Shown here in pieces: positions 28,075-53,762 of a stretch of 54,419 nucleotides of DNA. The position numbers and the translations under genes are program-made. Below the pieces are notes generated by a model. The model was not told the DNA's origin, searched no databases, and was given only the letters and a program-made list of their open reading frames with translations. Source of the stretch: a virus. Taxonomy: Duplodnaviria; Caudoviricetes. The stretch covers positions 1 to 54,419 of IMG/VR virus record IMGVR_UViG_3300037590_000132, one strand, 5' to 3'. Within the stretch, counting starts at the first letter, position 1, and every line of letters starts with the position of its first letter.

Positions 28075-28087
28075 AACAGTCGTCCTC

Positions 28088-28145: not shown

Positions 28146-28211
28146 CGTAATTCTTTTTGCAGACGCGAGTTCTTACAAAACTCGTTCCGTTGAGCGGATA
28201 TTACGAGCGGT

Positions 28212-31000: not shown

Positions 31001-31042
31001 TGGTTTCTCCTGCGTGGTGAAATTAAATGAACGTGATGACAT

Positions 31043-31072
31043 AAAAAAAGCCGACCCGAAAAACGGATCGGC
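31043..31072 (-). terminator. Intrinsic terminator after intI
   Basis: GCCGATCCG-TTTTT-CGGGTCGGC-T7. Confidence 0.8.
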
Positions 31073-31147
31073 AAGCGAAGATTATGAAAGCGGCACCGCT
31101 GGCACGGAAACCAGCGGCCGACCTTTTCAGATCGTCGGATTGCAGTC

Positions 31148-32158
31148 CTAGCCGCAGATCGATAGTACAGGCTGAGGCGAAGACACGGCAAGGCGATCCA
31201 TCGGGTTCGGCAAATGCTTGTCCGCAAAAACGGAAACGTGCGTGTAGATCATCGTTGTCGAAACGTCAGCGTGACCAAGAAGACGCTGAATCTCTCGGAT
31301 GTTCACTCCGTCCATCAGCATGTGCGTTGCGAAGCTATGCCGAAGTGAATGAGACGATCCTCTCTTGCAGATACCAGCTTTCTTGACAGCCTTTGTCACA
31401 TTGTCGCTGAACGTATCTTCTAAGGTTCTACCTCTTCCGATCTCATCAGTTTCGTTGCATTTCGCTATTCTGTTTGTGCAGAAAAGCCAATAGTATCGCC
31501 AGTCTGTTGTAGGCTTTTGTCCATTGCTTCCGATCTTGAAGGGTGGAATGCAACCGCCAGTTTTCGATTGAATATCACGCCGCCGATAGTTCAGTGCGAT
31601 CTTTGCTTGCTGGCGAAGCGGATCGTTCAGTGATTTTGGTATTGGAACCGTTCGGCTTTTCTTGTGCTTCGAGCACCACACTGTAAACATCTGGTTTTCT
31701 AAATCGATGTCTTTCAATCGCAGCCTGGAAACTTCGCCCACCCTCAAGCCGGAACCGTACATGATTTGAGCGGCTAGAAGATATCGACCTCGAAGGTTGC
31801 TGAAAATCCTCGAAACCTCTGAGGCACTGAACACCACTGGAACCGTTTCCGGTTTTGATTGTGTCCGTGTTGCGTTCAAACCAGTGAGCGGTTTTTCGTA
31901 GAGCTGGTTGTAAAGCCACAAGATTGCAAAGAACGCTTGTTCGTGCTTTGAAACAGAAGCCTTTTCGACGACTGCCAGGTAAGTGAGCCACGCTTCTACG
32001 TCGTTGTGATCCAACTCGCGAGGCGAAACAAGTTTTCCATCCCGGCGGTTGTATTCGCAAAATCGCTTGATGTGCTTCCAGTACGCACGTTCTGTTTTTG
32101 GCGACTTGTGCTGTTCTTTCATCTTTTCATGAACAGCTTCTCTCAGTGTTTTCGTCAT
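31148..32158 (-). CDS. intI: Integron integrase
   Basis: YGSGLRVGE, HSLRHSFATH and LLGH..VSTTMIYTHV, with an IntI-type insertion ending WRYYWLF. Adjacent to attC sites. Confidence 0.88.
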   Translation of the reverse strand: MTKTLREAVHEKMKEQHKSPKTERAYWKHIKRFCEYNRRDGKLVSPRELDHNDVEAWLTYLAVVEKASVSKHEQAFFAILWLYNQLYEKPLTGLNATRTQSKPETVPVVFSASEVSRIFSNLRGRYLLAAQIMYGSGLRVGEVSRLRLKDIDLENQMFTVWCSKHKKSRTVPIPKSLNDPLRQQAKIALNYRRRDIQSKTGGCIPPFKIGSNGQKPTTDWRYYWLFCTNRIAKCNETDEIGRGRTLEDTFSDNVTKAVKKAGICKRGSSHSLRHSFATHMLMDGVNIREIQRLLGHADVSTTMIYTHVSVFADKHLPNPMDRLAVSSPQPVLSICG

Positions 32159-32233
32159 TGTGTTCTTCCGTTGGAACCAAGCGATCGAAAGCTGCAACTA
32201 ACGATCGCATCGAAGGCATCTTACAAATTCGGA

Positions 32234-32278
32234 CTTATCCCTGGTGATGCCGAAACCGGGGATAAGAACAAGATAGGC
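32234..32278 (+). other. Candidate attI site (core GATAGGC at 32272-32278)
   Basis: Upstream of intI. GGATAAG-AACAA-GATAGGC has attI1-like spacing and its core is complementary to the R'' of attC1. Confidence 0.55.
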
Positions 32279-32298
32279 GGACGAGGTTGACATGTCCG

Positions 32299-32517
32299 TC
32301 ATGTCACTGTGTCATTTTTCGAAACATTGGTGCCTTCGCATCTGATGCACGGGACAGTGGTAATTCCACCTCCATCGTTAAATGGATACTGCCCTCTCCC
32401 ATCACACACGGCACACTTCGTTTCGGTGGTCCGCCTATCATCCGATTCTTTGGCAACCGGCTCGATCCGTCGCCGCCTATCAAACGATTGCTTTGGACTC
32501 ATTTCATTCGACTGCAT
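32299..32517 (-). CDS. Cassette 1 ORF: small CxxCxGxG zinc-finger protein
   Basis: CAVCDGRG...CIRCEGT; RBS and ATG lie inside attC1. Confidence 0.6.
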   Translation of the reverse strand: MQSNEMSPKQSFDRRRRIEPVAKESDDRRTTETKCAVCDGRGQYPFNDGGGITTVPCIRCEGTNVSKNDTVT

Positions 32518-32559
32518 TTCTTTCCCTCGTTGGATTTGCCAAAGAATCGGATGTTCCCA
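32475..32559 (+). other. attC site 1
   Basis: R'' GCCTATC, L'' CGATT[G]CTTTGG[A]C, L' GCCAAAGAATCG, R' GTTCCCA. Confidence 0.7.
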
Positions 32560-32973
32560 CTACCGAACATGCTCAATAGCTTTGCCCGGCTCACTGCTTC
32601 GCCAGTCCGGCCATTGCCGCTGTTGATTGATCGTCAGCTTGTTCGCCAAACCACTCACGATGTCGAGCGGGCAATAGTCCTCTCGGCACGCACCATCAAT
32701 CGCGAGCAATATGATGTCAATCCATTCTTCCAGCTTGCGACTCTCGGCAGCTTCTTCGATCTCTTTGCGCAAGTGATCAATTACACCATCGCTTCCACGG
32801 CGAGACGGTGGCCCGAATGTCGCGAAACTCCAATCCCGCTGTTCGATGATGTGATCGACAAGGTCAAATCTGTAGTTCCTGTGCGATACCGGTTCACCTC
32901 CCAGCGGAGCGGGAACAATGGGTTGCTCCGGAGCCTTTGGTTGATCGGCTGGTTGACTGGTTTGGGTTGTCAT
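32560..32973 (-). CDS. Cassette 2 ORF: DUF550 MazG-like dATP/dGTP pyrophosphohydrolase
   Basis: WS.ATFGP, HLRKEI.E, EWIDIILLAIDG, N..R.WPDWR...AIEHVR. Confidence 0.85.
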   Translation of the reverse strand: MTTQTSQPADQPKAPEQPIVPAPLGGEPVSHRNYRFDLVDHIIEQRDWSFATFGPPSRRGSDGVIDHLRKEIEEAAESRKLEEWIDIILLAIDGACREDYCPLDIVSGLANKLTINQQRQWPDWRSSEPGKAIEHVR

Positions 32974-33033
32974 GGCTTCACTTTCCTTTGAGGTTGTTGA
33001 TATGAATTGGCCCGGAGAACCCGAACGTTACCC
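32910..33033 (+). other. attC site 2
   Basis: CGGGAAC-AAT-GGGTT[G]CTCCGG[A]GCC ... GGCCCGGAGAACCC-GAAC-GTTACCC. Confidence 0.88.
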
Positions 33034-33040
33034 ATACGAA

Positions 33041-33754
33041 TCAGCCAATGTTGAGCAACGCGGGGTTTAACACTCCGCCACTTTCATTGGCCTCATCGCC
33101 TTCGGTTCCAATCTGCGTTTCCTTGTTGTGCCACCGCCGCAATCCTTCGCCGTGCTTCCAGCACTGAGACAGCATCGACACGGCTGCACCGTACATGAAA
33201 CCGGTGATTCCTTCGTCGTCCGCAAGGCGGCTCAATTCCTCCGCACATTCCGCGATGGTTTCGCCGCTCGCAATCCGCACCTGCATCAACCTCGCCCATT
33301 TTTCGGCGTACCTGACGCAGTAACTGCCGTATCCATCCTTGTTGGCGTCAACACACTTCTGCCAACCTTCGGCGTCGGACAATTCAATCGGCCCGGCGTT
33401 GCCTAACGCACCTTGCAAAACGAGTTCTTTCTCGCGTTGCTTCTGTTCGTATTTCTCGTTTTGGATGCGGCGACGTTCTTCGTTCTCCGCTTCGATCTTG
33501 GCATCGGATTCTTTTTCCGCTTCCGACAATTGCGGTTTGGGGTACGGCCCGATTGTTGGATTTTCGCCGAGGTATCCGCTAAGCCCACGCGACCAATCGC
33601 GGTGAATCAACTCTGGGTCTGACGCTCCTGACACAACGACCGTTACGCCGTTGAAATCAAACTGGCATTCGTCGCCATTCGATTTTGCGTCCGCAATCGC
33701 CGTTTTGATGGTGCAGGTGATTTCGTTTCCGATACTGGGGTCAAGCGTTCTCAT
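33041..33754 (-). CDS. Cassette 3 ORF: conserved phage hypothetical protein
   Basis: GAGG RBS and ATG at 33754; GITGFMYGAAV..L..CW..GE.LR.WHN...G.LNPA. Confidence 0.75.
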   Translation of the reverse strand: MRTLDPSIGNEITCTIKTAIADAKSNGDECQFDFNGVTVVVSGASDPELIHRDWSRGLSGYLGENPTIGPYPKPQLSEAEKESDAKIEAENEERRRIQNEKYEQKQREKELVLQGALGNAGPIELSDAEGWQKCVDANKDGYGSYCVRYAEKWARLMQVRIASGETIAECAEELSRLADDEGITGFMYGAAVSMLSQCWKHGEGLRRWHNKETQIGTEGDEANESGGVLNPALLNIG

Positions 33755-33766
33755 AGTGTCCTCGAT

Positions 33767-33888
33767 GGGTAACAAAGTGATGAACCGGATCGGCGGTCAT
33801 CGGGGGAAGGGTTGGTTAGTTGGTTTGGTTTGATCGTTCGTTGGGTCAATGCGGGCCACGCGCCGACCGGTTATCACAGACGTTCCAC
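33767..33888 (+). other. attC site 3
   Basis: GGGTAAC-AAA-GTGAT[G]AACCGG[A]TCGGCG ... CGCCGACCGGTTATCAC-AGAC-GTTCCAC. Confidence 0.9.
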
Positions 33889-33893
33889 GAATC

Positions 33894-34154
33894 CTATTCG
33901 CATTTGACGAAGATTCTGTGTTGTCCTGCGTGTCTCACAGTTTGCGAGATTTCGCGAATCTCACCCAGTTCGACCATGCGATCGACGCACGCAAGCATCC
34001 GCCACGAATCGCCCGTGCATGTCGATATTGCCTCATTCATTCGGACGGCACCTGCGAACTCCAATGCGTTAAAAACGTGTGCCCGGATTTTCAAAAACAT
34101 CCGTTGACCTTCATCCGTGAAGATCTCTTCGCGTTGCTTTTCGTAAACGTACAT
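33894..34154 (-). CDS. Phage hypothetical protein (winged-helix-like)
   Basis: GGGAG RBS; GDSW.MLACVDR.VELGEIREI. Confidence 0.65.
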   Translation of the reverse strand: MYVYEKQREEIFTDEGQRMFLKIRAHVFNALEFAGAVRMNEAISTCTGDSWRMLACVDRMVELGEIREISQTVRHAGQHRIFVKCE

Positions 34155-34179
34155 CTCGTGGCTCCCTGTCAATCGTTCT

Positions 34180-34545
34180 CGGTTTACTGCTGTCTCTCAA
34201 AGTGGACCGCGAAGGTTCCGCCCCCTCATAGCACTTTCCGTTGGCTCCGATCGTACGCTCGGCGGATAGCTCGGCCCTAGTTGCCGGGTTCGCACCGGCT
34301 CCCCGCTGTCGCATCAGCGGTCAAGGCTCGTTTTTGTCATATCGCCGGTCCGAGGTGACCGTCGTCGGGTTTCAATCTCTCGCCACTCCATGCCTGACGA
34401 GTGGTGTGGTCTAGCCGTACTGGCCTTGCCGCTGCAATGGTCGGTCGCGGGGTATCCCCTCACGCCACAACCAGCCAATCCACTGCGGCTCCCAAATCGC
34501 CAAGACCAGCCATGTCGGCATGGTGTGGTCCCATTCGGTTCGGAT
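34180..34545 (-). ncRNA. Candidate structured non-coding RNA
   Basis: About 400 nt without a credible ORF, containing several GC-rich hairpins including a T-loop-like GCCGG-TGCGAAC-CCGGC. Confidence 0.35.
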
Positions 34546-34569
34546 GATAAAAACAATAAACATCGACTC

Positions 34570-35136
34570 TTAAACTGCTACGCTGCTTTGTTGGACGGAT
34601 GGACGTGGCGAGTCGCCAATCTGCTTCAGTGCTGGGACAATCAATGGGGTCCAGATGTGATCCCAAAAACTCATCCACTGACCATTTGGTTCGTCGCATC
34701 TGTACTCCCAGGGTTCCATTAGGTGCGTTTGATCACACCAGCCTCGGAAATCTGTCCAGCCCCGTTGGAACTCATCAATGAACTCCCACTCCAAAGCCGC
34801 TTCTTCCTTGTCGAGTGTCCCCGTCTTGCGAAGAGAGATGATTTCGCTCTTGATGTGATTGACAGTGCGTTCGTCGCTTGGGACGCGAATGTTCCCATTC
34901 AGCATCTTCTCGCCCATATAGTCCCAATTGAGCCCAGCCAGGAACTGCGGCAGAGTCCGATCACCAATGTGACGCCAACAATAAGACCACTCCCCGTAGT
35001 CGCTGACGATGACGACTCGGCCAGTCTCCTCATCGATCAACAACCGTGCCCAACCCCATGATTTTGTGACAGCGCTGATCTCCCGCATCACGGTTTCCTT
35101 GATCGTCACTCCATCCGGTATCGTTTGCATCGCCAA
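34570..35136 (-). CDS. Phage hypothetical protein
   Basis: 188 aa Trp-rich ORF with SDYGEWSY.W and an RBS. Confidence 0.65.
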   Translation of the reverse strand: MAMQTIPDGVTIKETVMREISAVTKSWGWARLLIDEETGRVVIVSDYGEWSYCWRHIGDRTLPQFLAGLNWDYMGEKMLNGNIRVPSDERTVNHIKSEIISLRKTGTLDKEEAALEWEFIDEFQRGWTDFRGWCDQTHLMEPWEYRCDEPNGQWMSFWDHIWTPLIVPALKQIGDSPRPSVQQSSVAV

Positions 35137-35150
35137 GATTCTTTCCTTTG

Positions 35151-36077
35151 TTACGCAGATGTTTGGTATTCGATGGTGAATTCTTCGATCGCTTGTTCAC
35201 GGTTCAACGTTGGCATGATTGCCTTTGCCGTTTTCACTCGATCGACATAGGACTTGTGATCCAAGCCTTCCGCCGTGTGCCCGAGATATCGCCACGCTTC
35301 ACCGCCGTTTTTCTTGACTTCGGTGGCTCCGGTGCGGCGAAGGTGTTGCAGTGCACGATTGCAAACATCTGCATCGATTCCCGCCAGTTTTCTCGCCTTG
35401 CGGAACCAATAGTAAAATTGGCTTTCCGATTGCGGCCATCGAAGTGGTGTTTCTGCGTCGGGGTGGCCGGATTCCTGCAAGACCCTCGCAATCTGTTGAA
35501 AACCTGCCAGCGTTTGGTCCGTCACCTCGACCAAGTGCATGTTCTTGGTTTTGTGTTGCGACAACGCCGCGTTGTTTTGAACCAACCATTCAGACCGGAA
35601 ATCCCAAAGGTCCCGACGTCGCAAGCCAGTCTCATAAGCAAACCAAACAAGCGTCGCGAAATAGGTTGATCGCGGAACCCCGTTGGGCAACACACCTGGC
35701 AGTTTTCCCATTGCATCAGCGACCGTTTTCAACTCTTCGAAATCCCACGCCGCTGGATTCTTGGGTGCGATCTTGATCTTGCGAATTTTCGATCGCTTGA
35801 TCTTCTTTTTGACGTACTTCGCCAACGTGATGATGTTTTTCATCCCGTTGTCACGCGACTGATCGGACAGATCAGTGTGCAGCAATTCGTAACGCATCCA
35901 CTCGTTGATTCGCTTTGGTTTCAAATCCGCGATCGTTGATTTTCGACCGAGAAACCGATCGAAGCGGCGAACTGAACACATCAAACCAGCGACATACAAC
36001 GGCGAGAGCTCGCGGTCGCGATCGTAGTTCTGGACAACTTTCTGAAGTGTGCGATTCTTCTTGCTCAACGAACCCAA
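35151..36077 (-). CDS. Tyrosine recombinase
   Basis: YETGLR, QHKT, QHLRR, YLGH and HKSY catalytic pattern. Confidence 0.85.
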
Positions 36078-36577
36078 CCCTGCAGCACGAGTTCGCCTTC
36101 AATGTTGGGCGGTTGCCAGCCTTCTGGCTTCAAACGCTTGCCGTCTTCTCGAATTGGACCGGTCATTTTCGCGTCATTGGCATCCAGGACCGCGTTCATG
36201 ACATGAACATCGCCAACTCCCAAGCAGGACAAACATCCAAGGGTGACGACCATCACGTCACAGCAACCATCGACCGCATCAACCAGGTTGAAATCCGCCG
36301 ACACGTTGAACACGATGTCTTCTTCGCGGACTGGGTGAAGATCAACACCTCCGTCCTGATCCGGAACACGAAGGACGATCGAAACGCCCAACGCCTGGCA
36401 GGTTTCCAAGGCTTCTTCCAGAATCAACTTCGCCCGCAGAATGCGTTCGTCTTCACGCGGTTGATCTGGCCACAAGCGAACGATTTGTTTCGCTTCTCGC
36501 ATGAACCGTTCCACCCGTCGCTGGTATTCGGTTTGAACAAAGCGACGTGGTGACTGATGCTTTTCTTGGGTCGGCAC
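36065..36577 (-). CDS. MazG-like/PRA-PH NTP pyrophosphohydrolase
   Basis: [17 protein letters not shown]...REDGK.LKPEGW.PP. Confidence 0.85.
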
Positions 36578-36702
36578 AATGGAACCTCATAAAGAGAGTG
36601 TTCCGAAGCGACCGCGAACGTCTGCCAGGTGGTGAGCCTGAATGTCGGATGGTAAGTCCGACGGGTTGAACGGTTGAAAAGATAGCGACGTGTCAGTGAT
36701 TG

Positions 36703-37179
36703 TCAAGCAATCAAACGCAGGTCGCTTGCGATGATCCTCAAATCAGGAGCATCTGCTGGGTGCATCACACCGTCTTGCTGGTCACGTTGACGATCGTTCA
36801 TCCACTTGGCAATGATCCGGATCATCTCTCGTCGATCGACGACGGACGGCTCAAACTGATGGCTCAGCAGTTCCCGTGGCCGAACATCGTCGGGTGCATA
36901 CAGTGCCAACTGCAATGTTCCTGGAGCGGAAAATTCGTTCGTCGAGCCTGGGTAGAACTGACGAAACATCCGCAGCTCGACGTCCCATCCGGTCACCAGC
37001 CAACGCGAGCGTGAAGTGTACGGACGCTTCAGGAATTCCATTGGCGTCAATGGCTCCGTCACCAGATCGCGGATCTTGTGAACGATCAGGTTTCGTTCTT
37101 TTCGTGGTGCCTTGGAAATCCAGCGAACATGAGTGTCCTTGGGGTAGAACAGCGTGATTTCCTTGCCTTTTTCAAACAT
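36703..37179 (-). CDS. WYL-like domain protein
   Basis: ITLFYP...RWLVTGWD....RQFY; GAAGG RBS and ATG at 37179. Confidence 0.5.
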   Translation of the reverse strand: MFEKGKEITLFYPKDTHVRWISKAPRKERNLIVHKIRDLVTEPLTPMEFLKRPYTSRSRWLVTGWDVELRMFRQFYPGSTNEFSAPGTLQLALYAPDDVRPRELLSHQFEPSVVDRREMIRIIAKWMNDRQRDQQDGVMHPADAPDLRIIASDLRLIA

Positions 37180-37252
37180 GCTTGGCCCTTCTTTGCTAGC
37201 AAATGGATCTTGAATGAAAGAAGCATTCTGGTAGCGGCCGTGACACGTTTGG

Positions 37253-37906
37253 TCACTTGCGGGGTATTTGTTGATGCACGCCGCTTGCAAATGCCCAAGC
37301 AAGCGTTCCTACCCAGCCCAGCAGCGTCCATCCAAAAACGATATTCAAGATGCCAATTGGAATCCAATTCTGGTGCGACCGAACGTATGCGATCGAAACT
37401 GGCAGCATGTAGACAGTCGCAAGCACGAAGAAAAAGACTGGGAAAATGACAAGCAACAGTCCCGTTCTTGGAATATCCGACCATGGCGTTTCGCCTGTCA
37501 GGACCGTGAGAACAGAGCCAACGACCATGAAAGATTCGGCTGCCGCAACAATCACGAAGATGAAGTACACAACTTGCAGAAGTCGGTCATCTGGCCACTT
37601 GAGCCATGAAAGCACACCGTTATTTTCTTCGACTGAACGGCATCGATCTTCAGCGACCACCTCTACTTCGTTGTCCGGGACAACAGGTGGAGGTTCAGGT
37701 TCAGGCGAAACAGATTGAGATTCAAAAGCTTTCAGTAGGGTTTGGACTTGGCTTGCTTTTACCCACTTGCCACCAGTTTCAGCATTTTGGAACACAGTGT
37801 GCGTTTGCAACAATTCCCCATGGAGAACCATCTCGCTGAGCTCATTCAGGGATAGCGGTCCGCTTGTCTCGCCATCACCAACGCTGTAGTACCAATCATC
37901 TGCCAC
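37253..37906 (-). CDS. GYF_2 (DUF4339) plus superinfection immunity (T4 Imm-like) membrane protein
   Basis: WYY...GPLS..EL...G.L...W..A; YMLP..IA..R.H.N...I.ILN..FGWTLLGW..L.WA. Confidence 0.85.
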   Translation of the reverse strand: MADDWYYSVGDGETSGPLSLNELSEMVLHGELLQTHTVFQNAETGGKWVKASQVQTLLKAFESQSVSPEPEPPPVVPDNEVEVVAEDRCRSVEENNGVLSWLKWPDDRLLQVVYFIFVIVAAAESFMVVGSVLTVLTGETPWSDIPRTGLLLVIFPVFFFVLATVYMLPVSIAYVRSHQNWIPIGILNIVFGWTLLGWVGTLAWAFASGVHQQIPRK

Positions 37907-38516
37907 GTGTCACCGCCTCTGAGGGTGAGTCAGGCTTGGTGGCGAACCATGCAACGAAGCAAATCACGAGAAGAAAAAGGTAAATCGGAATCCAGCCAGT
38001 TGCTAAAGCGAACGAATATATTCCGCAAGCCAAAATCAACCTGTTGAAGGTATAGACGGAGTAGCCAAGAGCGTAACGACCATCGCTCAGTACTTGGGCG
38101 TCACTCATGCGGTCAATGAAAAACAAAGCAAAAGTAACTACAAAGCAGCAAATGAACGACGCGGTCAATATCAACATGGCGATCTTTGCCGGGTGCACGC
38201 CAGCAAATCGTTCGAGCCACGTGTTCACTGTGACAGTAGGTTTTCTGGGACGATCAGCAACGACAACTTCTTCGAGGTTGACAGAATGATCCACCGGCGG
38301 AGGACCATCAACAGGCAGCGGCGATTGTGTTTCAAACACGTTCAGGATCTTTTTGATCCTTTCCGCCCGAACCCATTTTCCATGGGTTTCAACGGAATGA
38401 AAGACAACGTGCGATCGCGAAAGACTGCCAGATTCCGCCATGTTCGCGAGCTCGTCCAGCGACAGCGGCCCATTGGTTTCGCCATCGCCGACACTGTAGT
38501 ACCAACTTGCGGCCAC
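37896..38516 (-). CDS. GYF_2 (DUF4339) membrane protein
   Basis: Paralogous N-terminus WYYSVGDGET.GPLSL.EL, followed by TM helices. Confidence 0.8.
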   Translation of the reverse strand: MAASWYYSVGDGETNGPLSLDELANMAESGSLSRSHVVFHSVETHGKWVRAERIKKILNVFETQSPLPVDGPPPVDHSVNLEEVVVADRPRKPTVTVNTWLERFAGVHPAKIAMLILTASFICCFVVTFALFFIDRMSDAQVLSDGRYALGYSVYTFNRLILACGIYSFALATGWIPIYLFLLVICFVAWFATKPDSPSEAVTRGR

Positions 38517-38519
38517 GTG

Positions 38520-38993
38520 TCACCCCTGCTTGCGTTTGCGGCTCGCTGTCGAGCGATTGCCCGCAGCCTTTGAACGAGTCGACTTCTTCCGTGATGCTGA
38601 TTCTACGCCCGATTCCGTGCTCTGTCGTCGTCTTTCACTGTCTTCGTCGATCTGAGCAACTTGGACACCCGGGATATCTGGAAGAGGCTTCTTTTTAGCG
38701 TGACCACCGTTGCGGATGAATTCATCATTTTCGTCAAGTTGCTGGCCAGGTGGGAAAACAATTCCACGGCGAGCGTTTGTAACGGAAACCTTCAGTTTTG
38801 GCTGAAAAGATGCGAGACCCTTCATCGCTTTATCAAACATGCTTTTGTTGAATGCAGAAAGCACGAGACCAGATTTCTCTTCCCAATCGATGGCGTCATC
38901 TACCGATGAAAGTGCTTCCACGAGCAAATCTCGCATCTTTTGAAGCTCACCGAGTGAGTATTCGTTCGTAACTGCTGGGTCGCGGCGTTTCAT
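38520..38993 (-). CDS. Hypothetical protein in the repressor position
   Basis: First gene of the leftward arm; no recognisable HTH or S24 domain. Confidence 0.55.
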   Translation of the reverse strand: MKRRDPAVTNEYSLGELQKMRDLLVEALSSVDDAIDWEEKSGLVLSAFNKSMFDKAMKGLASFQPKLKVSVTNARRGIVFPPGQQLDENDEFIRNGGHAKKKPLPDIPGVQVAQIDEDSERRRQSTESGVESASRKKSTRSKAAGNRSTASRKRKQG

Positions 38994-39174
38994 TCAGAAA
39001 GCCTAACCGCACGACCGCACGCATTCAAGCTAAATCTGGTTTTTTTAAGGCTAGTCCAGGAAAGCACTTGCGTTCGACGTGAGCCAAAAAAGGCTAAATC
39101 AAGCTTGATTTAGCCTAGATGGAGCCGTAGATTTCCGCACGTCGTCACACAAACACGACCGCACGGAAAAACGG
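38994..39174. promoter_or_regulatory. Divergent control region with an operator-like palindrome
   Basis: Perfect 26-bp palindrome AGGCTAAATCAAGCTTGATTTAGCCT at 39091-39116; direct repeat CACGACCGCACG at 39010 and 39154. Confidence 0.7.
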
Positions 39175-39477
39175 ATGCCACATCTCTCACGCAAACGACC
39201 ACCTGCTCAAACGATCCCTATCGATTGGGACGTGTTCACCGATTGCAAGCAGCGAACCTGCACTCACGGCATCGACTTCACCGGCGATCGCGAAACGTTT
39301 CGCAACCGAGCTCGCAACGCCGCTCGACGGCGAGGGTTTAAGGCTCAGACGTGGAGCGAGGGTGACGACATGATCGTTTTGTTTTCGAAGCCCATCCCCA
39401 AAAGAAGGCCGAAAGCGAAACCTAGTTCACCGTCCGCTTCCAAACCGAAGCGTCCGCGAACGTCTGTCAAAGGTTGA
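39175..39477 (+). CDS. Small basic protein, possibly DNA-binding (Cro position)
   Basis: First rightward ORF; FR..AR.AARRRG. Confidence 0.55.
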   Translation: MPHLSRKRPPAQTIPIDWDVFTDCKQRTCTHGIDFTGDRETFRNRARNAARRRGFKAQTWSEGDDMIVLFSKPIPKRRPKAKPSSPSASKPKRPRTSVKG

Positions 39478-39548
39478 ACACCACTCTTTGTGTTTTCTGG
39501 CTCGCTGTGGTGGCGGGCCAGCAAACACGCCAACGAAAGCGTTTCGAA

Positions 39549-39920: not shown

Positions 39921-39934
39921 GAGGTCACTGCGTC

Positions 39935-40705: not shown

Positions 40706-40746
40706 TCGCGAATTTACCTTCACTTCCTCTTTCAAAAGCTCTTGCC

Positions 40747-41906: not shown

Positions 41907-41916
41907 AGAAATCGTC

Positions 41917-42516: not shown

Positions 42517-42567
42517 TCGACACACCGCTGACGGCGTCTTGCTGTCAGCCGCGGCGAAAGCCGCATG

Positions 42568-42640: not shown

Positions 42641-42678
42641 TTTTCTCGCGTCCTCCCATTCCATTCAAATCTCTTGCC

Positions 42679-45707: not shown

Positions 45708-45914
45708 AAAACAATACGGGAATGACCAGCGACCTGCTTGGTCGTCTTATCGCTCCGGATTTGCTCGATGAAAACGACCAAGCCTGTTTTTGGTCTGGTG
45801 TGTGTGACGATCGTCGGTGCAGCCACTTTGCGACGCACCCATTCATGACTACCACCGCCTAGATAGACAATCTGTCAGGTCATCCTAATCATCACCGAAC
45901 CCGCTGAAGAAACA

Positions 45915-46247
45915 ATGTCGAGCACGCTTCTCCCAGAACACCTTGGCCAGATCCTTGAACAAACGGACAGAAGACCAGACGAGCTTTCGGAGTGGATGAT
46001 GGTGATGCGAGCGTTCGTAGACGCCAGATTTGGAACGGAAACAACTGCTGAGTACGACGGAAAAGGTGAAGTTTGCTTAACAGTATTCAGAGACGTTGGT
46101 GTCGCAAAGTTCGAAATGCTTGACATCGCAAGGTTCGTATTGTCGACCAACTCTCCGTTTGTTGATGAAGTGATATCCGGCGTTACTATTCACGAGAAAC
46201 ATGCAGTTTCTGTTTCCATTGACGATGTCAGGGGCGAACAAGAATGA
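45915..46247 (+). CDS. Hypothetical protein
   Basis: ATGA-coupled to the next gene. Confidence 0.55.
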   Translation: MSSTLLPEHLGQILEQTDRRPDELSEWMMVMRAFVDARFGTETTAEYDGKGEVCLTVFRDVGVAKFEMLDIARFVLSTNSPFVDEVISGVTIHEKHAVSVSIDDVRGEQE

Positions 46248-48829
46248 CTGCTGCGACCACCACTGACACTTCCACCGCCTACAACGACTTCCTGCTATCA
46301 AAGGCACCGGTTGCCGTTGCCACGGGTTTCGAGCCGCCAACGAAGCCGCATCGGTCGCTGAAGCCTCATCAAGTGGACATTGCAACCTGGATGATCCGCC
46401 AAGGACAAGCTGCCGCGTTCGCGTCGTTTGGATTGGGAAAGACTCGCATTCAATTGCAGGTCGCCAAATGGGTTCGCCAAAAAACCGGTCAGAAGGTTTT
46501 GTTCATCGCACCTCTGGGCGTCCGCCAGGAGTTCACCCGCAACGACGGTCCAGCGATGGGCATGAAGGTCGAGTATTGCCGCAATGACGCGGAGATCGCG
46601 AAAGCGAGAACATCGTTCATCATCACCAACTATGAACGGGTTCGCGACGGTCAAATCGACGTTTCGCAGTTCGCGGCCGTGCTGATGGACGAAGCCTCTT
46701 GCTTGCGAAACTACGGCACCAAAACGTCGCAGATGTTCGTGCAACTTTTCGCCGACACGCCTTATAAGTTTCTAGCTACCGCAACACCCTGCCCGAACGA
46801 TTTTATCGAACTGATCAACTACGCCGACTTCCTTGGTGTGATGGACCGCGGCCAAAGTATGACCCGCTGGTTCCAACGAGACAGCGAAGAAGCTGGCAAC
46901 TTGACGCTCTATCCGCATGAAGAAGAACGGTTCTGGTTGTGGGTCGCGACTTGGGGGCTGTTTGTCTCACGACCATCCGACCTGGGGCACGATGACGAAG
47001 GCTATTCACTGCCAAGGTTGAACGTTCACTGGCATCCGATCACCACGTCTTACAAGCGTGCAGTGGAAGAAGTCGACAAACGAAACGGACAGCGTCGACT
47101 GATTCCGAAGACTTCTGGCGGTATTCAACAAGTCGCCAAGGAGCGAAAACATACCGTCGACGACCGCATCGCTGAGGCAAAACGCATCATCGAGCAACAT
47201 CCTGACGACCATTGGCTGGTTTGGCACTACTTAGAATCAGAGCGTCATGCGATCTGCAAAGCGATCCCCGAAGCCGTCGCGGTCTACGGTTCGCAAAATC
47301 TAGAAGATCGTGAACAGCAAATCATCGACTTCTCAAACGGGAAGATTCGGGTGCTGGCACCAAAGCCTGAAATCGCTGGTTCGGGGTGCAACTTCCAAAG
47401 GCACTGTCACCGGGCAATTTTTGTTGGGCCGACCGACAAGTTCAACGACTTCATTCAGGCCGTTCATCGCATCTATCGGTTCCTGCAAGACAGTCCGGTG
47501 GAAGTCCACATCGTGCACACGGACACCCAGTCGGAAACCGTCACGATCATGAAACGAAAGTGGCGGCAACACGACGAGCTTACGGACCGAATGCAACAAA
47601 TCATCCGCACTCACGGTCTGAATCAATCTGGTATCGAGAAAAGGTTAAAGCGAATGAGCGGTGTCAAGCGTCAAGAAGTCACTGGAAACAATTTCCGTGC
47701 AATCCACAACGACTGCGTGGTGGAAATGCAAGACTTCGCCGATGACTCGATCGATCAGATTGTGACGTCGATTCCGTTCTCGGATCACTACGAATACTCG
47801 CCCAACTTCAACGACTTCGGCCACAACAACGGCGATGTCGGCTTTTTTGAACAATTCGACTTCTTGGTTCCGCAACTGAAACGAGTCCTTAAACCTGGCA
47901 GGGTCGCCTGCATCCACACGAAGGATCGCATCGAGTATGGCACCATGACGGGCAACGCGATGTACAGCGTCAACGAGTTCAGCGACAAAACCGTCGCCGC
48001 ATTCAAACGTCATGGTCTGATCTATATGGGCCGGATCGTCATCGACACTGACGTCGTTCGTGAAAACGCTCAAACTTATCGCCTTGGTCACACCGAAAAC
48101 GCCAAAGACTCGACCAAGATGGGTTGCGGATCGACAGAATTCGTTTTGCTGTTTCGCAAGTGGCAGCCATCGTATTCGCCAAACGAAACCGCCAACGGCC
48201 CGGATCCAGTCACCAAGGACAAATCAGTCTATGGGCGGGGAGCCTGGCAAATCGACGCTTCGGGCGTCTGCCGTTCCAAGGGCGATGAGCTTCTATCGCC
48301 AGCCATGATAGCGAACATGTCGGTCAGCAGCATCTACGCATGGTGGCGTGATCATTGCGAAAAAAACGGATACGACTACCCAACACACTTGCAGTTCACG
48401 GAAGCCTGCGAAGCCGCGGGCAAGCTTCCCGCATCAATGATGTTGTTTTCACCATCGGGTCATGACCCAAACGTCTGGACTGACATTCTTCGGTTCAAAA
48501 CGCTCAACAGCGAACTTCGCAAGAAGACGACGGAGAACCACATTTGTCCGCTTCAGTTGGACGTCATCGAACGACTGATCCGACGATACAGCAACGAAGG
48601 CGAAACGATTCTGGATCCGTTCGGCGGTCTGATGTCGGTTCCCTACCAAGCCATCCAGATGGGCCGCAAAGGGGTCGGTATCGAACTGTCAGAGCAGTAC
48701 TGGAACTTCGGTGTTCGGTTTTGCCAAAGGATCGAACGCGAACAAAACACACCGACTCTTTTTGACTGGATTGAATCCCAAGAAAACGATGCATCACAAC
48801 CCAAATCGCTAGCGAGGACTGCGGAATGA
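46244..48829 (+). CDS. SNF2-type helicase fused to an N4/N6 DNA methyltransferase
   Basis: FGLGKT, DEAS, ATATPCPND, QAVHRIYRF; VTSIPF, HICPLQLD, LDPFGG. Confidence 0.9.
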   Translation: MTAATTTDTSTAYNDFLLSKAPVAVATGFEPPTKPHRSLKPHQVDIATWMIRQGQAAAFASFGLGKTRIQLQVAKWVRQKTGQKVLFIAPLGVRQEFTRNDGPAMGMKVEYCRNDAEIAKARTSFIITNYERVRDGQIDVSQFAAVLMDEASCLRNYGTKTSQMFVQLFADTPYKFLATATPCPNDFIELINYADFLGVMDRGQSMTRWFQRDSEEAGNLTLYPHEEERFWLWVATWGLFVSRPSDLGHDDEGYSLPRLNVHWHPITTSYKRAVEEVDKRNGQRRLIPKTSGGIQQVAKERKHTVDDRIAEAKRIIEQHPDDHWLVWHYLESERHAICKAIPEAVAVYGSQNLEDREQQIIDFSNGKIRVLAPKPEIAGSGCNFQRHCHRAIFVGPTDKFNDFIQAVHRIYRFLQDSPVEVHIVHTDTQSETVTIMKRKWRQHDELTDRMQQIIRTHGLNQSGIEKRLKRMSGVKRQEVTGNNFRAIHNDCVVEMQDFADDSIDQIVTSIPFSDHYEYSPNFNDFGHNNGDVGFFEQFDFLVPQLKRVLKPGRVACIHTKDRIEYGTMTGNAMYSVNEFSDKTVAAFKRHGLIYMGRIVIDTDVVRENAQTYRLGHTENAKDSTKMGCGSTEFVLLFRKWQPSYSPNETANGPDPVTKDKSVYGRGAWQIDASGVCRSKGDELLSPAMIANMSVSSIYAWWRDHCEKNGYDYPTHLQFTEACEAAGKLPASMMLFSPSGHDPNVWTDILRFKTLNSELRKKTTENHICPLQLDVIERLIRRYSNEGETILDPFGGLMSVPYQAIQMGRKGVGIELSEQYWNFGVRFCQRIEREQNTPTLFDWIESQENDASQPKSLARTAE

Positions 48830-49938
48830 ACATCGACATTGATACCGAACAATTTGCAGTGGAATTCCAGCAGGCGACCGCTTTCGCTTCGGCCAGGTCA
48901 CCTCGTGAGGTACTGCAAAACATTCACATTGTCGTGAATCCTGATGGCATGTTCCTCAACGCTACCGATGGTTTTCATTCGGTCCGCATCAAGTCATCTG
49001 CCCTGACCGAAACGCACGACACGGGGCAGCTTTTGATTCCAATCGAACGTGGCGGAAAGATGTTTCGTGAATTGACTGGCAACGCCAATATCGTGGTCGG
49101 CGAGAAGTCAGCCAAAGTCGACGGTGATGGATGCTCGTTCAGTTTTCCAACGGCGAATCCTGATGAATTCCCATCGGTTGAAACCAAAGAGCCCCGCTCG
49201 CATGTTGAGATACCGGCTGGCGTTCTCTCGCGAATGATCAAGGAGACTGTCTACGCGTGCGACGATGGCGACTCTCGCTATGCACTTGGCGGTGTGTCGT
49301 TCGAACATGACGGCGAAAAACTGTTGATGGTGGCAACCGACGGCCGTCGAATGTCGAAGTCGGAATATCACTGCCAGGGAAAGGACGACTCACTGTCCAA
49401 CGGAACCACGATCGTCCCCAGTCGTTCACTTCAATCGATCGCTCGGTTGCTCGCCAAAAGTGAATCCATTGCAAGGTTAGCGGCACCGCTCAACACGATC
49501 ACGATCGATTGCGGGCCAATCATGGTTTCAGTGCGACTCATTGATGGACGATTTCCGAACTGGCGACAGATCGAAGCGAATCGGATCAACGGGCATCAAG
49601 CGACGATCAACATCGGCGAGCTGCACCGATCCGTTCGTCGAGCTGCGGTGGTGACGGACATCGATTCACGTGGCATTGACTTTGAGTTTTCGAGCGACGG
49701 TCTGACGGTAATGGGCCAGGGCGAGAGTTCCGGCGAATCAAACGCCAATACCAACTTGCTTTGGAACAGCGAGACCATCGTCGTCACGCTCGACAATGCG
49801 TTTGTGAGCGACTTTTGTCGGTCGGTTGATCCCGAATCAGAGGTCACGATCGAAGTGGCCAGCGGGAAGGCTCCTGTCTACCTGAGCAATGACGAGGGAT
49901 TGCTACACATGATTCAGTGCATGGCAAGGAATCGATGA
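48826..49938 (+). CDS. dnaN: DNA polymerase III beta sliding clamp homologue
   Basis: ATD, DEFP, SRYALGGV, VATDGRR, RLIDGRFP.W. Confidence 0.9.
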   Translation: MNIDIDTEQFAVEFQQATAFASARSPREVLQNIHIVVNPDGMFLNATDGFHSVRIKSSALTETHDTGQLLIPIERGGKMFRELTGNANIVVGEKSAKVDGDGCSFSFPTANPDEFPSVETKEPRSHVEIPAGVLSRMIKETVYACDDGDSRYALGGVSFEHDGEKLLMVATDGRRMSKSEYHCQGKDDSLSNGTTIVPSRSLQSIARLLAKSESIARLAAPLNTITIDCGPIMVSVRLIDGRFPNWRQIEANRINGHQATINIGELHRSVRRAAVVTDIDSRGIDFEFSSDGLTVMGQGESSGESNANTNLLWNSETIVVTLDNAFVSDFCRSVDPESEVTIEVASGKAPVYLSNDEGLLHMIQCMARNR

Positions 49939-50005
49939 AAGGCAACACCAAAGAAACGAATGACAGAAAGAGGGCGTCTGTGACATTGATCAAAGGATAT
50001 TCGAA

Positions 50006-50815
50006 ATGGTGATGGATTCTCGATTCGCCGAACTTCGCGAGCACTTTCAAATCAATTCGCCGGAAGACTGGCAATCGGTCCGCCCCGAGTTCGTGACGGC
50101 GATTCCCAACGTCGGACCGCAAACACTGAATCAGCTTCGACTGATCCTGGCAAACCAAGGAATAACGCTGAAGGATGACCAGACGCCGGCATTCTGGCAG
50201 GCAAATTTGCCCGCGATGCAAGGTCCGTCGCAAGTCGCCGACAATCAAAACGCAGTCGTCACGCCGTTCACGATTTTGATCGACAAGGCTGAGCAACTGC
50301 CGTTCACATTCGCTGGAATTCGATCTGATTCCGATCAGCGAAACCGTCCCCTGTTGGTCCAAACCGAACTGGCTCACTTGGGACCTTCGCACGGCGACTA
50401 CACCATCAAAGGCTTGGAGCATCACGTTCATGTCGAACGCAAAAGCCTATCGGATGTCCAAGGGACCGTTCTTGGATGGGGCCACCGTCGCGATCAGTTC
50501 AAGCGAACACTTGAATTCCTGGCAGAGATTGAATCATCAGCCATCATCGTCGAATGCGAAGAATGGACGGCGATTGAAAGCCTCGTCCCCCGCGGCAAAA
50601 AGTCGAAAGCGGAGATGCAGAAGATCTTCAGTCGACAAGTAGACGCGTGGCGAGACGATCACCGAGTCCCTTGGATCTTTTGTCGTTCGCGTCGAATGGC
50701 CGAGATCAAAACCTTCCGCTGGCTGTCACGATTTTATCGCCACCACATCGCCAAGTTGAAACAGGCCAACAAGCCAGCCATCGAACAACCAGAACATCAG
50801 TTTCCCGGCATCTGA
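50006..50815 (+). CDS. ERCC4/XPF-type nuclease
   Basis: IDKAEQLP, GDY, VERKSLSD. Confidence 0.8.
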   Translation: MVMDSRFAELREHFQINSPEDWQSVRPEFVTAIPNVGPQTLNQLRLILANQGITLKDDQTPAFWQANLPAMQGPSQVADNQNAVVTPFTILIDKAEQLPFTFAGIRSDSDQRNRPLLVQTELAHLGPSHGDYTIKGLEHHVHVERKSLSDVQGTVLGWGHRRDQFKRTLEFLAEIESSAIIVECEEWTAIESLVPRGKKSKAEMQKIFSRQVDAWRDDHRVPWIFCRSRRMAEIKTFRWLSRFYRHHIAKLKQANKPAIEQPEHQFPGI

Positions 50816-50853
50816 CCCGTCACCACCTTCCGCACCAAAACAAGGACACCACC

Positions 50854-52209
50854 ATGCGTCAATTGCAAACGCCCGAATCCATGCGTCCCGATCACATGGA
50901 ACCAATCCCACCATCGCAAAGCGACCAAACCCCACCTTTTGACGTGGACGATTCGACTATTAAACAAGCCAATCCAGAAAACAAATCGGATCCAAAACCC
51001 TCACCGCCAGTAGATGACAGTGACGCCCCGGGGCACCAAGAATTGCAGTTGCTTGACGCAATCTACAAACAAACCATTCGCGTTTCGATGCTGGGAATGG
51101 ACGAACGAAAGCTCGCCAATCAACTGGAGGAATTGCGAGCTGAGTTGACTGCTGCCAGAGAGATGAAATCGTCGCTGCTCAATGAATTGCCCGACACGTT
51201 GCTTCAACTTCGCGACGGAATCGTTCCTGACAGAACCAACGAGACGATCGGTGGTGATGACATTGATAAGACGGGCGAGGGTGAGTCTTTGGCAGAGAGC
51301 CAGCCAACGAAATCGATCCTGGACGACATTCCGCGACTTGGAAAGAAGAAAGCGGAAGCTCTCGCAGAGGCTTATCCAACACTGGCAGACCTAGAAAACG
51401 CCCGTGCTGATGCAGCCAAAGCGAACCAACACTTCGCCGACAAATTGCCATCGGGAATCGGGAAGAAAATTGCCGACGAACTGACCGATCGACTGATTGA
51501 CGCACTCGCTGGAAACAACATCTCCGCCAGTGAACAGGTCAAGCAGAACAGGCCAGCTGAACCTGCTGCTGACGAGTCGACTGTGGAAGCAGAAGAGCAT
51601 CAGTGGCTTGAATTCTTTGTCGAAGAGGTTCGAGAGGCCAACGATTTCGATAGCCATGAAGACCCCGATGCTTGGCGAGCCGGATACGACGCCTTTGAAT
51701 CAAACCTGTCCATCGAAAGCATCGATCATGATCAAGACGTTGATTCGAAAATGGATTGGGTGCGTGGCTGGTTGAATGCAGAGTCATTCGAAAAAGAAGC
51801 AGTCGCCGCTGCTGAAGCGGAAGAGAAGGAAGATGTTCAAGCCGAGTCTCTCCGCGAGACGGATTCAACTGGACCCGATGGCGACGTGGACGTCTACGAC
51901 GACATCGATGACGACGAAACCGAAAACGAGGAACTTGGCGACGATCAGCCAAAACAGACTGGGCCGAAGTCAGACGATCCACCAAGTGAAAAGAAAGTTG
52001 ACATCGAGGCACGGGAGGAATTCGCTGAGTTCGTTCGCGACAGTGACGAGACTCAATACACCCACGACAAACAATCCTGGCAATCTGGCTACGAAGCCTC
52101 CATTGATGAACAACCGCTCGAAGCCTGCCCCGGTTGGTACAGCGACGAACAAGAATCCGATTGGATTCGCGGATGGGTCGAAGGATCCAAGATCGGATCT
52201 GACCTGTAA
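50854..52209 (+). CDS. Acidic protein with HhH motifs and two Rmf-like GY...W..GW repeats
   Basis: IPRLGKKKAEAL and SGIGKKIA; AWRAGYDA...WVRGW and SWQSGYEA...CP...WIRGW. Confidence 0.6.
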   Translation: MRQLQTPESMRPDHMEPIPPSQSDQTPPFDVDDSTIKQANPENKSDPKPSPPVDDSDAPGHQELQLLDAIYKQTIRVSMLGMDERKLANQLEELRAELTAAREMKSSLLNELPDTLLQLRDGIVPDRTNETIGGDDIDKTGEGESLAESQPTKSILDDIPRLGKKKAEALAEAYPTLADLENARADAAKANQHFADKLPSGIGKKIADELTDRLIDALAGNNISASEQVKQNRPAEPAADESTVEAEEHQWLEFFVEEVREANDFDSHEDPDAWRAGYDAFESNLSIESIDHDQDVDSKMDWVRGWLNAESFEKEAVAAAEAEEKEDVQAESLRETDSTGPDGDVDVYDDIDDDETENEELGDDQPKQTGPKSDDPPSEKKVDIEAREEFAEFVRDSDETQYTHDKQSWQSGYEASIDEQPLEACPGWYSDEQESDWIRGWVEGSKIGSDL

Positions 52210-52245
52210 ACCAAAGCTGAATCGAGAACCAAAACCTCAGGGAGG

Positions 52246-52881
52246 ATGACTACGTTGAGCCGCTACGAACTGAATGATGTGAAGGCGGCTGCACGTGGTC
52301 ATTGGCCTGCGATCCTAAACCGCGTTGCTGCGATCGATGATGACTTTCTCGATGTCGGCCGGCACGGACCATGCCCCAAGTGTGGAGGAGACGATCGATG
52401 GAACTTCACCAACTTGAACGAAGATGGCGGTGCGATTTGCAATCAGTGCGACAAATTCGGAGACGGGTTTGCTGTCATCCAGTGGATGTGTGGAATCGGT
52501 TTCATTGAAGCATTGAAACGGGTCGGTGAATTCCTGGGAGTTCAACCCGTCGCCAGAAAACGACATAGCAAGAACAAGCAAGTCGACCCATTTCGAAACA
52601 TTGAATTCCAAGATCTCAGTGAGCCATCCGTCAACAAGATCATGGCGGTTTGGTGCTTGAAGAAACGAGTTAAACCAGATTCTGTTCGATCGCTCAATCC
52701 AAGAATCGCACGATACCGAAAACGCTACACCGTGATCGCCATCCCCGTTCATGGAAAGCAAGTCGATGACATCATTGGCTGGACCCTTTACGAAGCGTTC
52801 GGCGGCAACCTGCCGCTCTACAACCCAAAGACCAAAGAAACCGACTGGCTCAAAGTCAAAACCCTCAAACTAAAGGATTAA
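52246..52881 (+). CDS. Primase N-terminal part (zinc ribbon plus core)
   Basis: ARG.W..IL, HGPCPKCGGDDR, CNQC..GDGF; stops before the TOPRIM domain. Confidence 0.85.
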   Translation: MTTLSRYELNDVKAAARGHWPAILNRVAAIDDDFLDVGRHGPCPKCGGDDRWNFTNLNEDGGAICNQCDKFGDGFAVIQWMCGIGFIEALKRVGEFLGVQPVARKRHSKNKQVDPFRNIEFQDLSEPSVNKIMAVWCLKKRVKPDSVRSLNPRIARYRKRYTVIAIPVHGKQVDDIIGWTLYEAFGGNLPLYNPKTKETDWLKVKTLKLKD

Positions 52882-52883
52882 CC

Positions 52884-53762
52884 ATGCGTTCCTACCTCAA
52901 TCTTCTTCGCGACATCATCGACAACGGCGAACGCCACGACGATCGAACTGGCATCGGTACACGCTCTGTTTTCGGACGGCAGTGGCGGCACGATATGAGC
53001 GAAGGATTCCCCCTGCTCACGACCAAGAGAGTGCCGCTTCGTTGGGTGTTCGAAGAGTTGATGTGGTTTCTTCGCGGAGAAACAAACGAAACAGAATTGT
53101 CGGTGCATGGAGTCGACATCTGGAAAGAATGGGCGACTGCGGAAAAGTGTTCGCAGTTTGGCCGCCAGGAAGGTGACCTTGGGCCAATCTACGGTCATCT
53201 GTGGCGTCAGTTTGGATTGTCAGAAGCAACCAGTGAATCGTCCCCTGGATGCAACCCCGTCTCAGGCGTTGATCAGATCGCCAACCTCCTTCGCGATCTT
53301 GAAATCAACCCGAACAGTCGCCGGCTGATCGTCACTGGCTGGCATCCTCATTTGGCGACTCGTGTTGCCTTGCCACCATGCCATACGCTCTGGCAGTTGA
53401 AAGTTCATGTAGACAATTCACTGAGCTTGCAGCTTTACGCACGCTCAATCGATGTGTTTCTCGGGCTGCCCTTCAACATCGCCAGCTACGCGATGCTTCT
53501 GGAACTGATCGGGTGCGTGACCGAACGTCAAACCCGCGAACTGATCATCAGCTTTGGAGACTTGCATCTCTACAACAACCACATTGATCAAGCCAAAGAG
53601 CAGCTTTCCCGTGACCCGAAACCATTGCCGTTGATCTACCCATCCACCGATTTCCCTGGATCGGGAACCTCACTGGAAAACCTCCTGGCAGTGCGATGGG
53701 AACACATTCACCTGACCAGCTATGACCATCACCCCAAGATCGAAGCAGAGGTGGCGGTATGA
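52884..53762 (+). CDS. thyA: Thymidylate synthase
   Basis: DRTGIGT, FPLLTTK, LGPIYG..WR, LPPCH, RS.D.FLGLPFNIASY, DLHLY.NH. Confidence 0.97.
   Translation: MRSYLNLLRDIIDNGERHDDRTGIGTRSVFGRQWRHDMSEGFPLLTTKRVPLRWVFEELMWFLRGETNETELSVHGVDIWKEWATAEKCSQFGRQEGDLGPIYGHLWRQFGLSEATSESSPGCNPVSGVDQIANLLRDLEINPNSRRLIVTGWHPHLATRVALPPCHTLWQLKVHVDNSLSLQLYARSIDVFLGLPFNIASYAMLLELIGCVTERQTRELIISFGDLHLYNNHIDQAKEQLSRDPKPLPLIYPSTDFPGSGTSLENLLAVRWEHIHLTSYDHHPKIEAEVAV

Follow-up and report, generated by a model that had tools for sequence, protein, structure and literature searches.

A primase-helicase encoded in two pieces was found in the window, by which we mean the whole 54,419-bp stretch of viral DNA analyzed here (IMG/VR record IMGVR_UViG_3300037590_000132, Caudoviricetes), a predicted provirus excised from a larger contig. 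The N-terminal part of the enzyme (N-half) is encoded on the plus strand and the C-terminal part (C-half) on the minus strand. Judged by their alignment with intact homologues, the two open reading frames (ORFs) are halves of one ancestral primase-helicase gene, with a break that is precise to a few codons. We consider it probable that this two-piece enzyme arose in a clade of phages when the whole early region was inverted long ago and the inversion became fixed. In the ancestor of this clade, temperate phages of Pirellulaceae-type planctomycetes, a single illegitimate inversion would have flipped the early region of about 22 kb with both of its divergent arms. One breakpoint would have hit the primase-helicase gene in the short linker that connects the N-terminal subdomain with the TOPRIM fold of its DnaG-type catalytic domain, and the other would lie near the end of the leftward arm. 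After fixation, the N-half would have gained a stop codon and the conserved tail KVKT(I/L)KxK, and the C-half a ribosome-binding site and a start (M-x-FG-Y/F-x-G) of its own. The rightward replication operon would now end with the gene of the N-half, and the gene of the C-half would come first on the late-gene strand, downstream of the leftward arm. The two proteins may associate non-covalently and thereby rebuild the primase active site; primer synthesis would then require transcription of both arms, and the leftward arm rather than the replication arm would point into the late genes.

Complementary halves and an inverted early region

The N-half protein has 211 amino acids (aa) and ends with ...WLKVKTLKLKD*, the stop codon being located at 52879-52881. 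It contains a zinc ribbon (residues 38-75) and the N-terminal subdomain of a DnaG-type RNA-polymerase domain. The zinc ribbon matches PF08273 (Zn_Ribbon_Prim) with an E-value of 9.6e-10 (39.1 bits, cutoff 23), and its ligands C43, C46, C65 and C68 are unvarying across 19 stand-alone N-half homologues. The block ..YTVIAIPV..G..IGWTLY.. resembles what we take to be the conserved N-subdomain motifs of DnaG-type primases. The ORF of the C-half (28994-31042, minus strand) holds an ATG at 31000 behind the sequence GGAG. Its product carries the TOPRIM motifs WKTEG and HDCDxPGQ within the first 150 residues, a D5_N domain, a superfamily 3 (SF3) helicase with the Walker A motif GEGGNGKS and a C-terminal winged-helix-like domain. 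Pfam matches were obtained for D5_N (PF08706, 22.7 bits, cutoff 22.4), DUF5906 (PF19263, 58.3 bits) and RFX_DNA_binding; in addition, the protein matches TIGR01613 (178.6 bits, cutoff 108.7), and its helicase part matches the structure 7OLA in the PDB (E 6.3e-24). The TOPRIM glutamate, the motif HDxDxxGQ and the Walker A motif GxGGNGK are unvarying in 11 C-halves (alignment A2).

Homologues of the C-half were identified in a search of 5.8 billion proteins; among the 120 best listed, most have a length of 813-876 aa and an N-terminal PF08273 domain. Such intact homologues are annotated as "P4 family phage/plasmid primase" and come from Crateriforma, Novipirellula and Pirellulaceae. When five of them were aligned with the two halves (alignment A1), the N-half spanned columns 1-215, stopping at ...KVKTL, and the start of the C-half (MLGIVG) coincided with the point where the intact proteins go on (..KVKLT-AGSQAGVI..). 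Since the alignment abuts exactly with all five intact homologues, the halves are truly complementary: joined end to end they match the ~825-aa proteins with neither overlap nor gap. The initial annotation, made from the sequence of the window alone, had described two complementary primase halves on opposite strands and had suggested aligning the fused protein to intact homologues; its coordinates and frames are correct, and the alignment is contiguous. Within the DnaG-type RNA-polymerase domain, the break separates the N-terminal subdomain from the TOPRIM fold. An alignment profile matches the RNA-polymerase domain of B. subtilis DnaG (5GUJ) across the split point, marginally (E 0.0027).

The orientation of the block between the halves was determined gene by gene with tblastn against 15 loci with an intact primase and against the whole records G007, G009 and G006. 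All 15 loci encode the N and C parts side by side on a single strand. Homologues of RecD2 (42957) and of the gene at 50006 lie upstream of the intact primase on the same strand in 10 of the 15, and the replication-arm genes (39935, 40747, 41797, RecD2 and 50006) keep their order and strand there, likewise in 10 of 15 loci. The record G007 (50.5 kb, with direct terminal repeats) has the replication arm, the intact primase and the late genes all on one strand, the homologue of 35151-36077 alone being divergent. Relative to this layout, the block 31001-52881 with both early arms and the control region is, as gene order indicates, turned round. An inversion of ~21.9 kb as an account of the positions of the halves is supported by these comparisons, and undoing it would restore the layout of the intact relatives. 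It had been anticipated that reversal would place replication arm, primase and late genes in this order on one strand and direct the other arm toward the xis-like gene, which agrees with the intact relatives. thyA, which lies next to the N-half as annotated, was not found in five intact-primase relatives; this empty result is uninformative, and thyA gives no position for the second breakpoint.

The split layout in a second genome and split forms across a lineage

The initial annotation had also suggested looking for the same breakpoints in related prophages. A second prophage, in the genome G001, contains the same split on opposite strands: the C-half is encoded at C1:377694-379715 (minus strand) and the N-half at 400938-401653 (plus strand), 21.9 kb apart, with the same block in the same orientation. 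All flanking modules of G001 are syntenic with the window at 30-72% protein identity, including RecD2 (59%), the SNF2-methylase (72%), the terminase (59%), the portal (61%) and thyA (62%). Because G001 shares this layout despite its great divergence, with protein identities of 36-72%, the split layout, by the comparison of the two sequences, predates the divergence of the window and G001 and was present in their distant common ancestor.

Protein ends and trees extend this lineage beyond the two genomes. Like the C-half of the window, 8 of 119 database homologues start with M-x-FG(Y/F)xG about 17 residues before WKxEG. In a tree of the helicase part (FastTree, 121 tips), these eight group with the window and G001 in a single clade of 10 tips with a Shimodaira-Hasegawa-like support of 0.987 and with zero long forms inside. 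The search with the N-half yielded 33 proteins, 28 of which have at most 260 aa; of these short ones, 22 end with ...KVKT(I/L)K.. at the break. These 22 stand-alone N-halves and P0130 form one clade of 23 (support 0.90), in which none of the 94 fused N-termini falls. Altogether, reading frames are uninterrupted and motifs conserved at 36-65% identity in the 23 clusters of stand-alone N-halves and in 10 C-halves, and the stop of the N-half and the start of the C-half are conserved across the clade. Two pairs of an N-half and a C-half share one longest contig size (P0015 and P0129, 66,257 bp; P0016 and P0146, 55,324 bp); judged by these equal sizes, both halves appear to be on the same contigs in two further members. 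Since each half is monophyletic and termini and catalytic motifs are conserved, both halves, as far as protein comparison can tell, go back to a single event and have since been maintained by selection, with conserved new termini.

A second clade of forms with 682-708 aa was observed (P0077, P0087, P0092 and P0115; support 1.0). Its members start 3-6 residues before WKTEG, have no zinc ribbon and are sister to P0020 and P0021; this clade may represent an independent split near the same domain boundary. Three further loci (L131, L012 and G372:C3:272548-275435) encode the N part next to the C part on one strand but in different frames, which could be a frameshift error or an adjacent two-gene form.

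When IMG/VR was scanned with single proteins, the N-half found no locus and the C-half only two, both of them distant. Alignment scans returned 25 loci from GTDB genomes, 80 loci in each of two scans of IMG/VR and 39 loci from JGI metagenomes. Nearly all of these are intact forms, the parts being adjacent on one strand in 21 of the 41 fetched loci besides that of the window and in 25 of the 39 JGI loci. The only inverted split with genomic context among the alignment-scan loci is L010, which is G001. A fragment of 1,138 bp (L141) has a split-type start and no flanking context, L040 and L037 have no N-half because they carry other N-terminal primase domains, and L165 and L168 are fused forms. 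In three genome samples, consisting of 401 genomes of the class of G001 and of 401 and 331 genomes of the family of G410, split-type pieces were found only in G001 and G636. In isolated phages, no tblastn match extended over 80% or more of the C-half.

Possible reassembly of the halves and alternative readings

The active site would need both halves, because the C-half has the metal-binding TOPRIM residues and the N-half has the zinc ribbon and the N-subdomain block. A split intein was considered and rejected, as the halves adjoin directly in the alignment with the intact homologues and the break contains no additional residues. With no intein residues at the break, any reassembly would therefore be non-covalent. 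A model of the complex between the N-half and residues 1-150 of the C-half scored 0.84 compared to 0.36 for the best of three controls, a score that stands for likeness and not for binding, since halves of a split gene often pass on their resemblance to solved folds of DnaG and T7 primases. The mark for this score was reached by 58 of 80 solved complexes and by 2 of 110 mismatched pairs. The runs agree in at least 97% of the contacts, with a partner pLDDT (predicted local distance difference test) of at least 83, and the pLDDT of the N-half modelled alone is 87.3. The predicted interface takes in both free ends (residues 1-7 of the C-half and 204-211 of the N-half). Together with the conserved catalytic motifs, the model makes it plausible that the two-piece primase-helicase reassembles non-covalently.

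Several observations weigh against a two-piece primase fixed by an old inversion. The TOPRIM assignment consists of the motifs, a sub-threshold match to Toprim_2 (E 0.0031, 18.3 bits, cutoff 22.1) and the marginal 5GUJ match. The fold search with the N-half gave no match at E <= 0.001, its top four PDB entries being DnaG-type primases with E-values of 0.03-0.25 (8DVF and 8GAO, T4 gp61; 2AU3, Aquifex; 1D0Q, zinc domain of B. stearothermophilus). The opposite-strand layout at ~22 kb was verified in two genomes only, the other members of the clade being known by their protein ends. The N-half of G001 changes frame at a run of five G, which is either an assembly error or real decay. The stand-alone N-half of G636 (L245, C31:12580-13909; 63% identical to that of the window) lies beside merely the last 44 aa of the upstream gene (a homologue of 50647-52209), and no C-half was found in this genome with the query used; this copy is probably a prophage remnant or mosaic. 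Finally, a strong terminator is located 42 nt upstream of the start of the C-half and no sigma-70-like promoter was found.

Some of these points would fit a split that is old and fixed but yields no two-piece enzyme. The C-half would then act alone as helicase or initiator, host DnaG or another enzyme would prime, and the N-half would have another role, a candidate being that of a zinc-ribbon DNA-binding or regulatory protein. We regard this as unlikely. Primase motifs are kept on both sides of the break (zinc cysteines, ..VIA(I/F)PV..G..GW..Y, the TOPRIM glutamate and DxD; 19 and 11 sequences), the new termini are conserved and lie within the predicted interface, and both halves apparently share contigs in two further members. 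To these observations such a separation of functions can oppose that association is suggested by a structure model whose score may reflect memorized folds, that the halves belong to different transcription units, and that G636 has an N-half without a detected C-half and G001 an N-half with a frame break.

A programmed, reversible site-specific inversion was the reading of the initial annotation: a phage recombinase would flip 31001-52884 on induction as a lysis/lysogeny switch, fusing the halves and feeding the replication arm into the late genes. The geometry for this is workable, and the un-inverted order is the layout of the intact relatives. As had been stated, the microhomology AGGAnnAACCA is present at both free ends (AGGATTAACCA at 52874-52884 and AGGAGAAACCA on the minus strand at 31011-31001), and the fusion by a crossover in AGGA is arithmetically in frame in the window, AG/GA having the same codon phase in both copies. 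Both copies are Shine-Dalgarno and start-codon contexts. AGGAnnAACCA is, however, absent from the G001 junctions, where the codon phase of the corresponding AGG letters differs and a crossover in AGGA would therefore give no in-frame fusion; at the position of the N-half tail, the closer relative G636 reads AAAGATTGA. The microhomology does not exceed chance: the best inverted-orientation local alignment of the two junction regions was equalled or exceeded by 96 of 300 shuffles for the window and by 18 of 300 for G001, and none of the 25 longest among the 108 inverted-repeat pairs in the window joins the junctions. The right junction has zero intergenic or non-coding DNA, and the gene that follows the N-half differs between the genomes: thyA in the window, a DnaJ-domain gene and then thyA in G001, and a DUF3310 gene without thyA in G636.

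Two tyrosine recombinases had been annotated within the inverted segment. The gene at 31148-32197, which adjoins one junction, is solidly identified as an integron integrase (IntI; TIGR02249, 283.6 bits, cutoff 265), whereas the gene on the minus strand at 35151-36077 has only a sub-threshold match to Phage_integrase (E 0.001, 19.3 bits, Pfam cutoff 27.1). There is no integrase at the junction of G001, where a C5-methylase and a helix-turn-helix gene occupy its place, and no homologue of either recombinase was found at E < 1e-8 in the 70 kb of G001 compared. The integron integrase does not belong to the features that are conserved with the split architecture. A homologue with 37% identity is encoded in L032 (8297-9241, plus strand) directly upstream of an intact primase on the same strand, an adjacency of integrase and primase as in the window.

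Both orientations had been proposed as a check of the switch and were looked for at the left junction in contigs of three sequencing runs. Logan contigs of X1, X3 and X4 (depth 42-51) traverse this junction at 31001 in the sequenced orientation alone, with no loose end or strand-changing joint; such contigs drop rare variants, and a minority orientation could therefore escape detection. The region is present in five pond-metagenome runs, four of which may be source samples and are thus not independent. In addition, each half has its own stop or start conserved across the clade, and zero fused proteins fall inside either split clade. With the same split in G001, monophyletic halves, no repeat sites, and neither microhomology nor integrase conserved, the programmed lysis/lysogeny inversion is not supported, and we consider it very improbable. 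A variant in which an induced recombinase flips the 22-kb region at low frequency at sites too degenerate to be recognized, fusing the halves and bringing the late genes behind the replication operon, so that the orientation in the assemblies would be the "off" state of a switch shared by the whole clade, appears hardly credible to us. That the window is misassembled, or that a decaying prophage was recently inactivated by a single chance rearrangement, can practically be dismissed, for although gene-breaking inversions are common in cryptic prophages and the window is a predicted provirus from a larger contig, the left junction is reproduced in contigs of three runs (possible source samples and not fully independent), the same layout exists in the unrelated assembly of G001, and frames are intact throughout the 23 N-half clusters and 10 C-halves.

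The contigs showed further features near the integron integrase. In X1 and X3, minor contigs with depths of 6.7 and 9.95 diverge from them at 32272-32301 and 32526-32555 and lead outside the sequence of the window. Because these branches continue into sequence absent from the window, a 284-bp unit with an ORF of 72 aa (32299-32517) also stands in different surroundings within this community, which is what would be seen with a mobile integron cassette. A perfect inverted repeat of 18 nt is located at 32439-32456 and 32536-32553. The contig loose ends at 32272 and 32555 were considered as inversion joints and rejected, as both 30-mers were absent from the window even with three mismatches allowed. 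A joint in X5 from 27010 to 39506 was disregarded, one of its sides having merely 21 letters.

Gene inventory and comparison with known systems

The coordinates of the features are listed in Table 1. Genes are encoded on the minus strand from position 1 to about 38,990 and on the plus strand from 39,175 to the end. The intrinsic terminator in the left junction, annotated near 31043-31072, is confirmed: its stem spans 31072-31050 on the minus strand and is followed by seven T, the T-run extending to 31043.

Table 1. Features of the 54,419-bp window and their positions
Feature	Position	Strand	Remark
Late/structural operon and small genes	1..28993	-	downstream of the C-half on the same strand; order agrees with G007 and G001
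Mu-like portal	16235-17782	-	late operon
Large terminase	20586-22082	-	late operon
C-half of primase-helicase	28994..31000	-	own GGAG ribosome-binding site, ATG at 31000
Block inverted versus intact relatives	31001..52881		both early arms and control region; gene-by-gene tblastn
Left junction spacer, from integron-integrase stop to C-half start	31001..31147	-	intrinsic terminator and C-half ribosome-binding site
Leftward arm	31148-38993	-	part of the inverted block
Integron-type tyrosine recombinase	31148..32197	-	TIGR02249, 283.6 bits; directly upstream of the C-half, inside the block
Tad4-like (anti-Thoeris) domain protein; GYF and superinfection-immunity protein; dATP/dGTP pyrophosphohydrolase	33041-33775, 37253-37906, 32560-32973	-	leftward arm
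Divergent control region	about 38994-39174		between the arms
Rightward replication arm to mid-primase	39175-52881	+	part of the inverted block
Replication-arm genes	39935..52209	+	colinear with the region upstream of intact primases
Exonuclease-like gene	39935-40705	+	replication arm
Further genes	40747-41730, 41797-42516, 50647-52209	+	replication arm
RecD2 helicase	42957-45707	+	
SNF2 helicase fused to N6/N4 DNA methylase	46244-48829	+	72% identical in G001
Pol III beta sliding clamp, phage-encoded	48826-49938	+	directly after the SNF2-methylase gene
ERCC4-like nuclease	50006-50815	+	
N-half of primase	52246..52881	+	PF08273 zinc ribbon
Right junction: last N-half codons and TAA	52874..52886	+	overlaps thyA ribosome-binding site and ATG
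thyA	52884-53762	+	downstream of the N-half
DUF3310 gene	53759-54130	+	after thyA
HTH_17 excisionase-like gene	54120-54419	+	runs off the end of the window

Two observations concern the late region. A gapped second copy of 28088-28145 lies ~10.3 kb further along the same contigs, at a computed window position of ~17801-17859. A DnaJ-domain gene is encoded at 17887-18624 on the minus strand; its homologue in G001 is located at 401670-402329 on the plus strand (37% identity).

If the two-piece primase-helicase is read correctly, a DnaG-type primase has been cut within its catalytic domain and yet retained by selection in at least 23 N-half and at least 10 C-half sequence clusters. Such a split primase would be a natural complementation experiment for primase architecture. 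The inversion would also be a clean example of a phage that outlived the reversal of its entire early region. In the genome rewired in this way, a different early arm would lead into the late genes, and primers could be made only with the products of two opposite transcription units. Annotators would then have to treat the stand-alone "zinc-binding domain of primase-helicase" and the ~680-aa "P4 family primases" of planctomycetes as two parts of one enzyme and not as fragments. A literature search at the level of titles and abstracts found no description of a split phage primase. The case combines known kinds, namely gene fission by a fixed inversion and multi-part primases.

Read together, the halves have the same domain content and order as the P4 alpha and T7 gp4-type primase-helicases. 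Compared to the ~825-aa primases of Pirellulaceae prophages (P0008, P0034 and P0038), the C-half is 45-53% identical and the N-half 34-43%. Whereas P4 alpha and T7 gp4-type enzymes are one chain, that of the window is cut inside the RNA-polymerase domain and encoded on opposite strands, 21.9 kb apart and in different operons.

Invertible DNA switches include Hin, Gin with the G segment of Mu, Cin with the C segment of P1, Fim and the shufflons. Like these, the segment in the window ends within or next to coding sequence, and one of its endpoints is flanked by the gene of a tyrosine recombinase. In contrast to these switches, the window has neither inverted-repeat sites nor a conserved recombinase, a single orientation was seen at the left junction, the segment is a whole early region of 22 kb, and the splits are monophyletic.

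In cyanobacteria, the split dnaE gene (dnaE-n and dnaE-c) encodes two parts that are rejoined by a split intein. As in the window, a replication enzyme is encoded by two distant genes on opposite strands, and this arrangement is kept through a whole lineage; the break in the window, however, has no intein residues. A precedent for cooperation between separate primase parts is provided by DnaG and T7 primase, in which the zinc-binding domains act in trans on a neighbouring catalytic domain. There, primase parts cooperate across polypeptides, but the chain is uncut and what acts in trans is the zinc domain alone, whereas the cut in the window also parts the N-terminal catalytic subdomain from TOPRIM.

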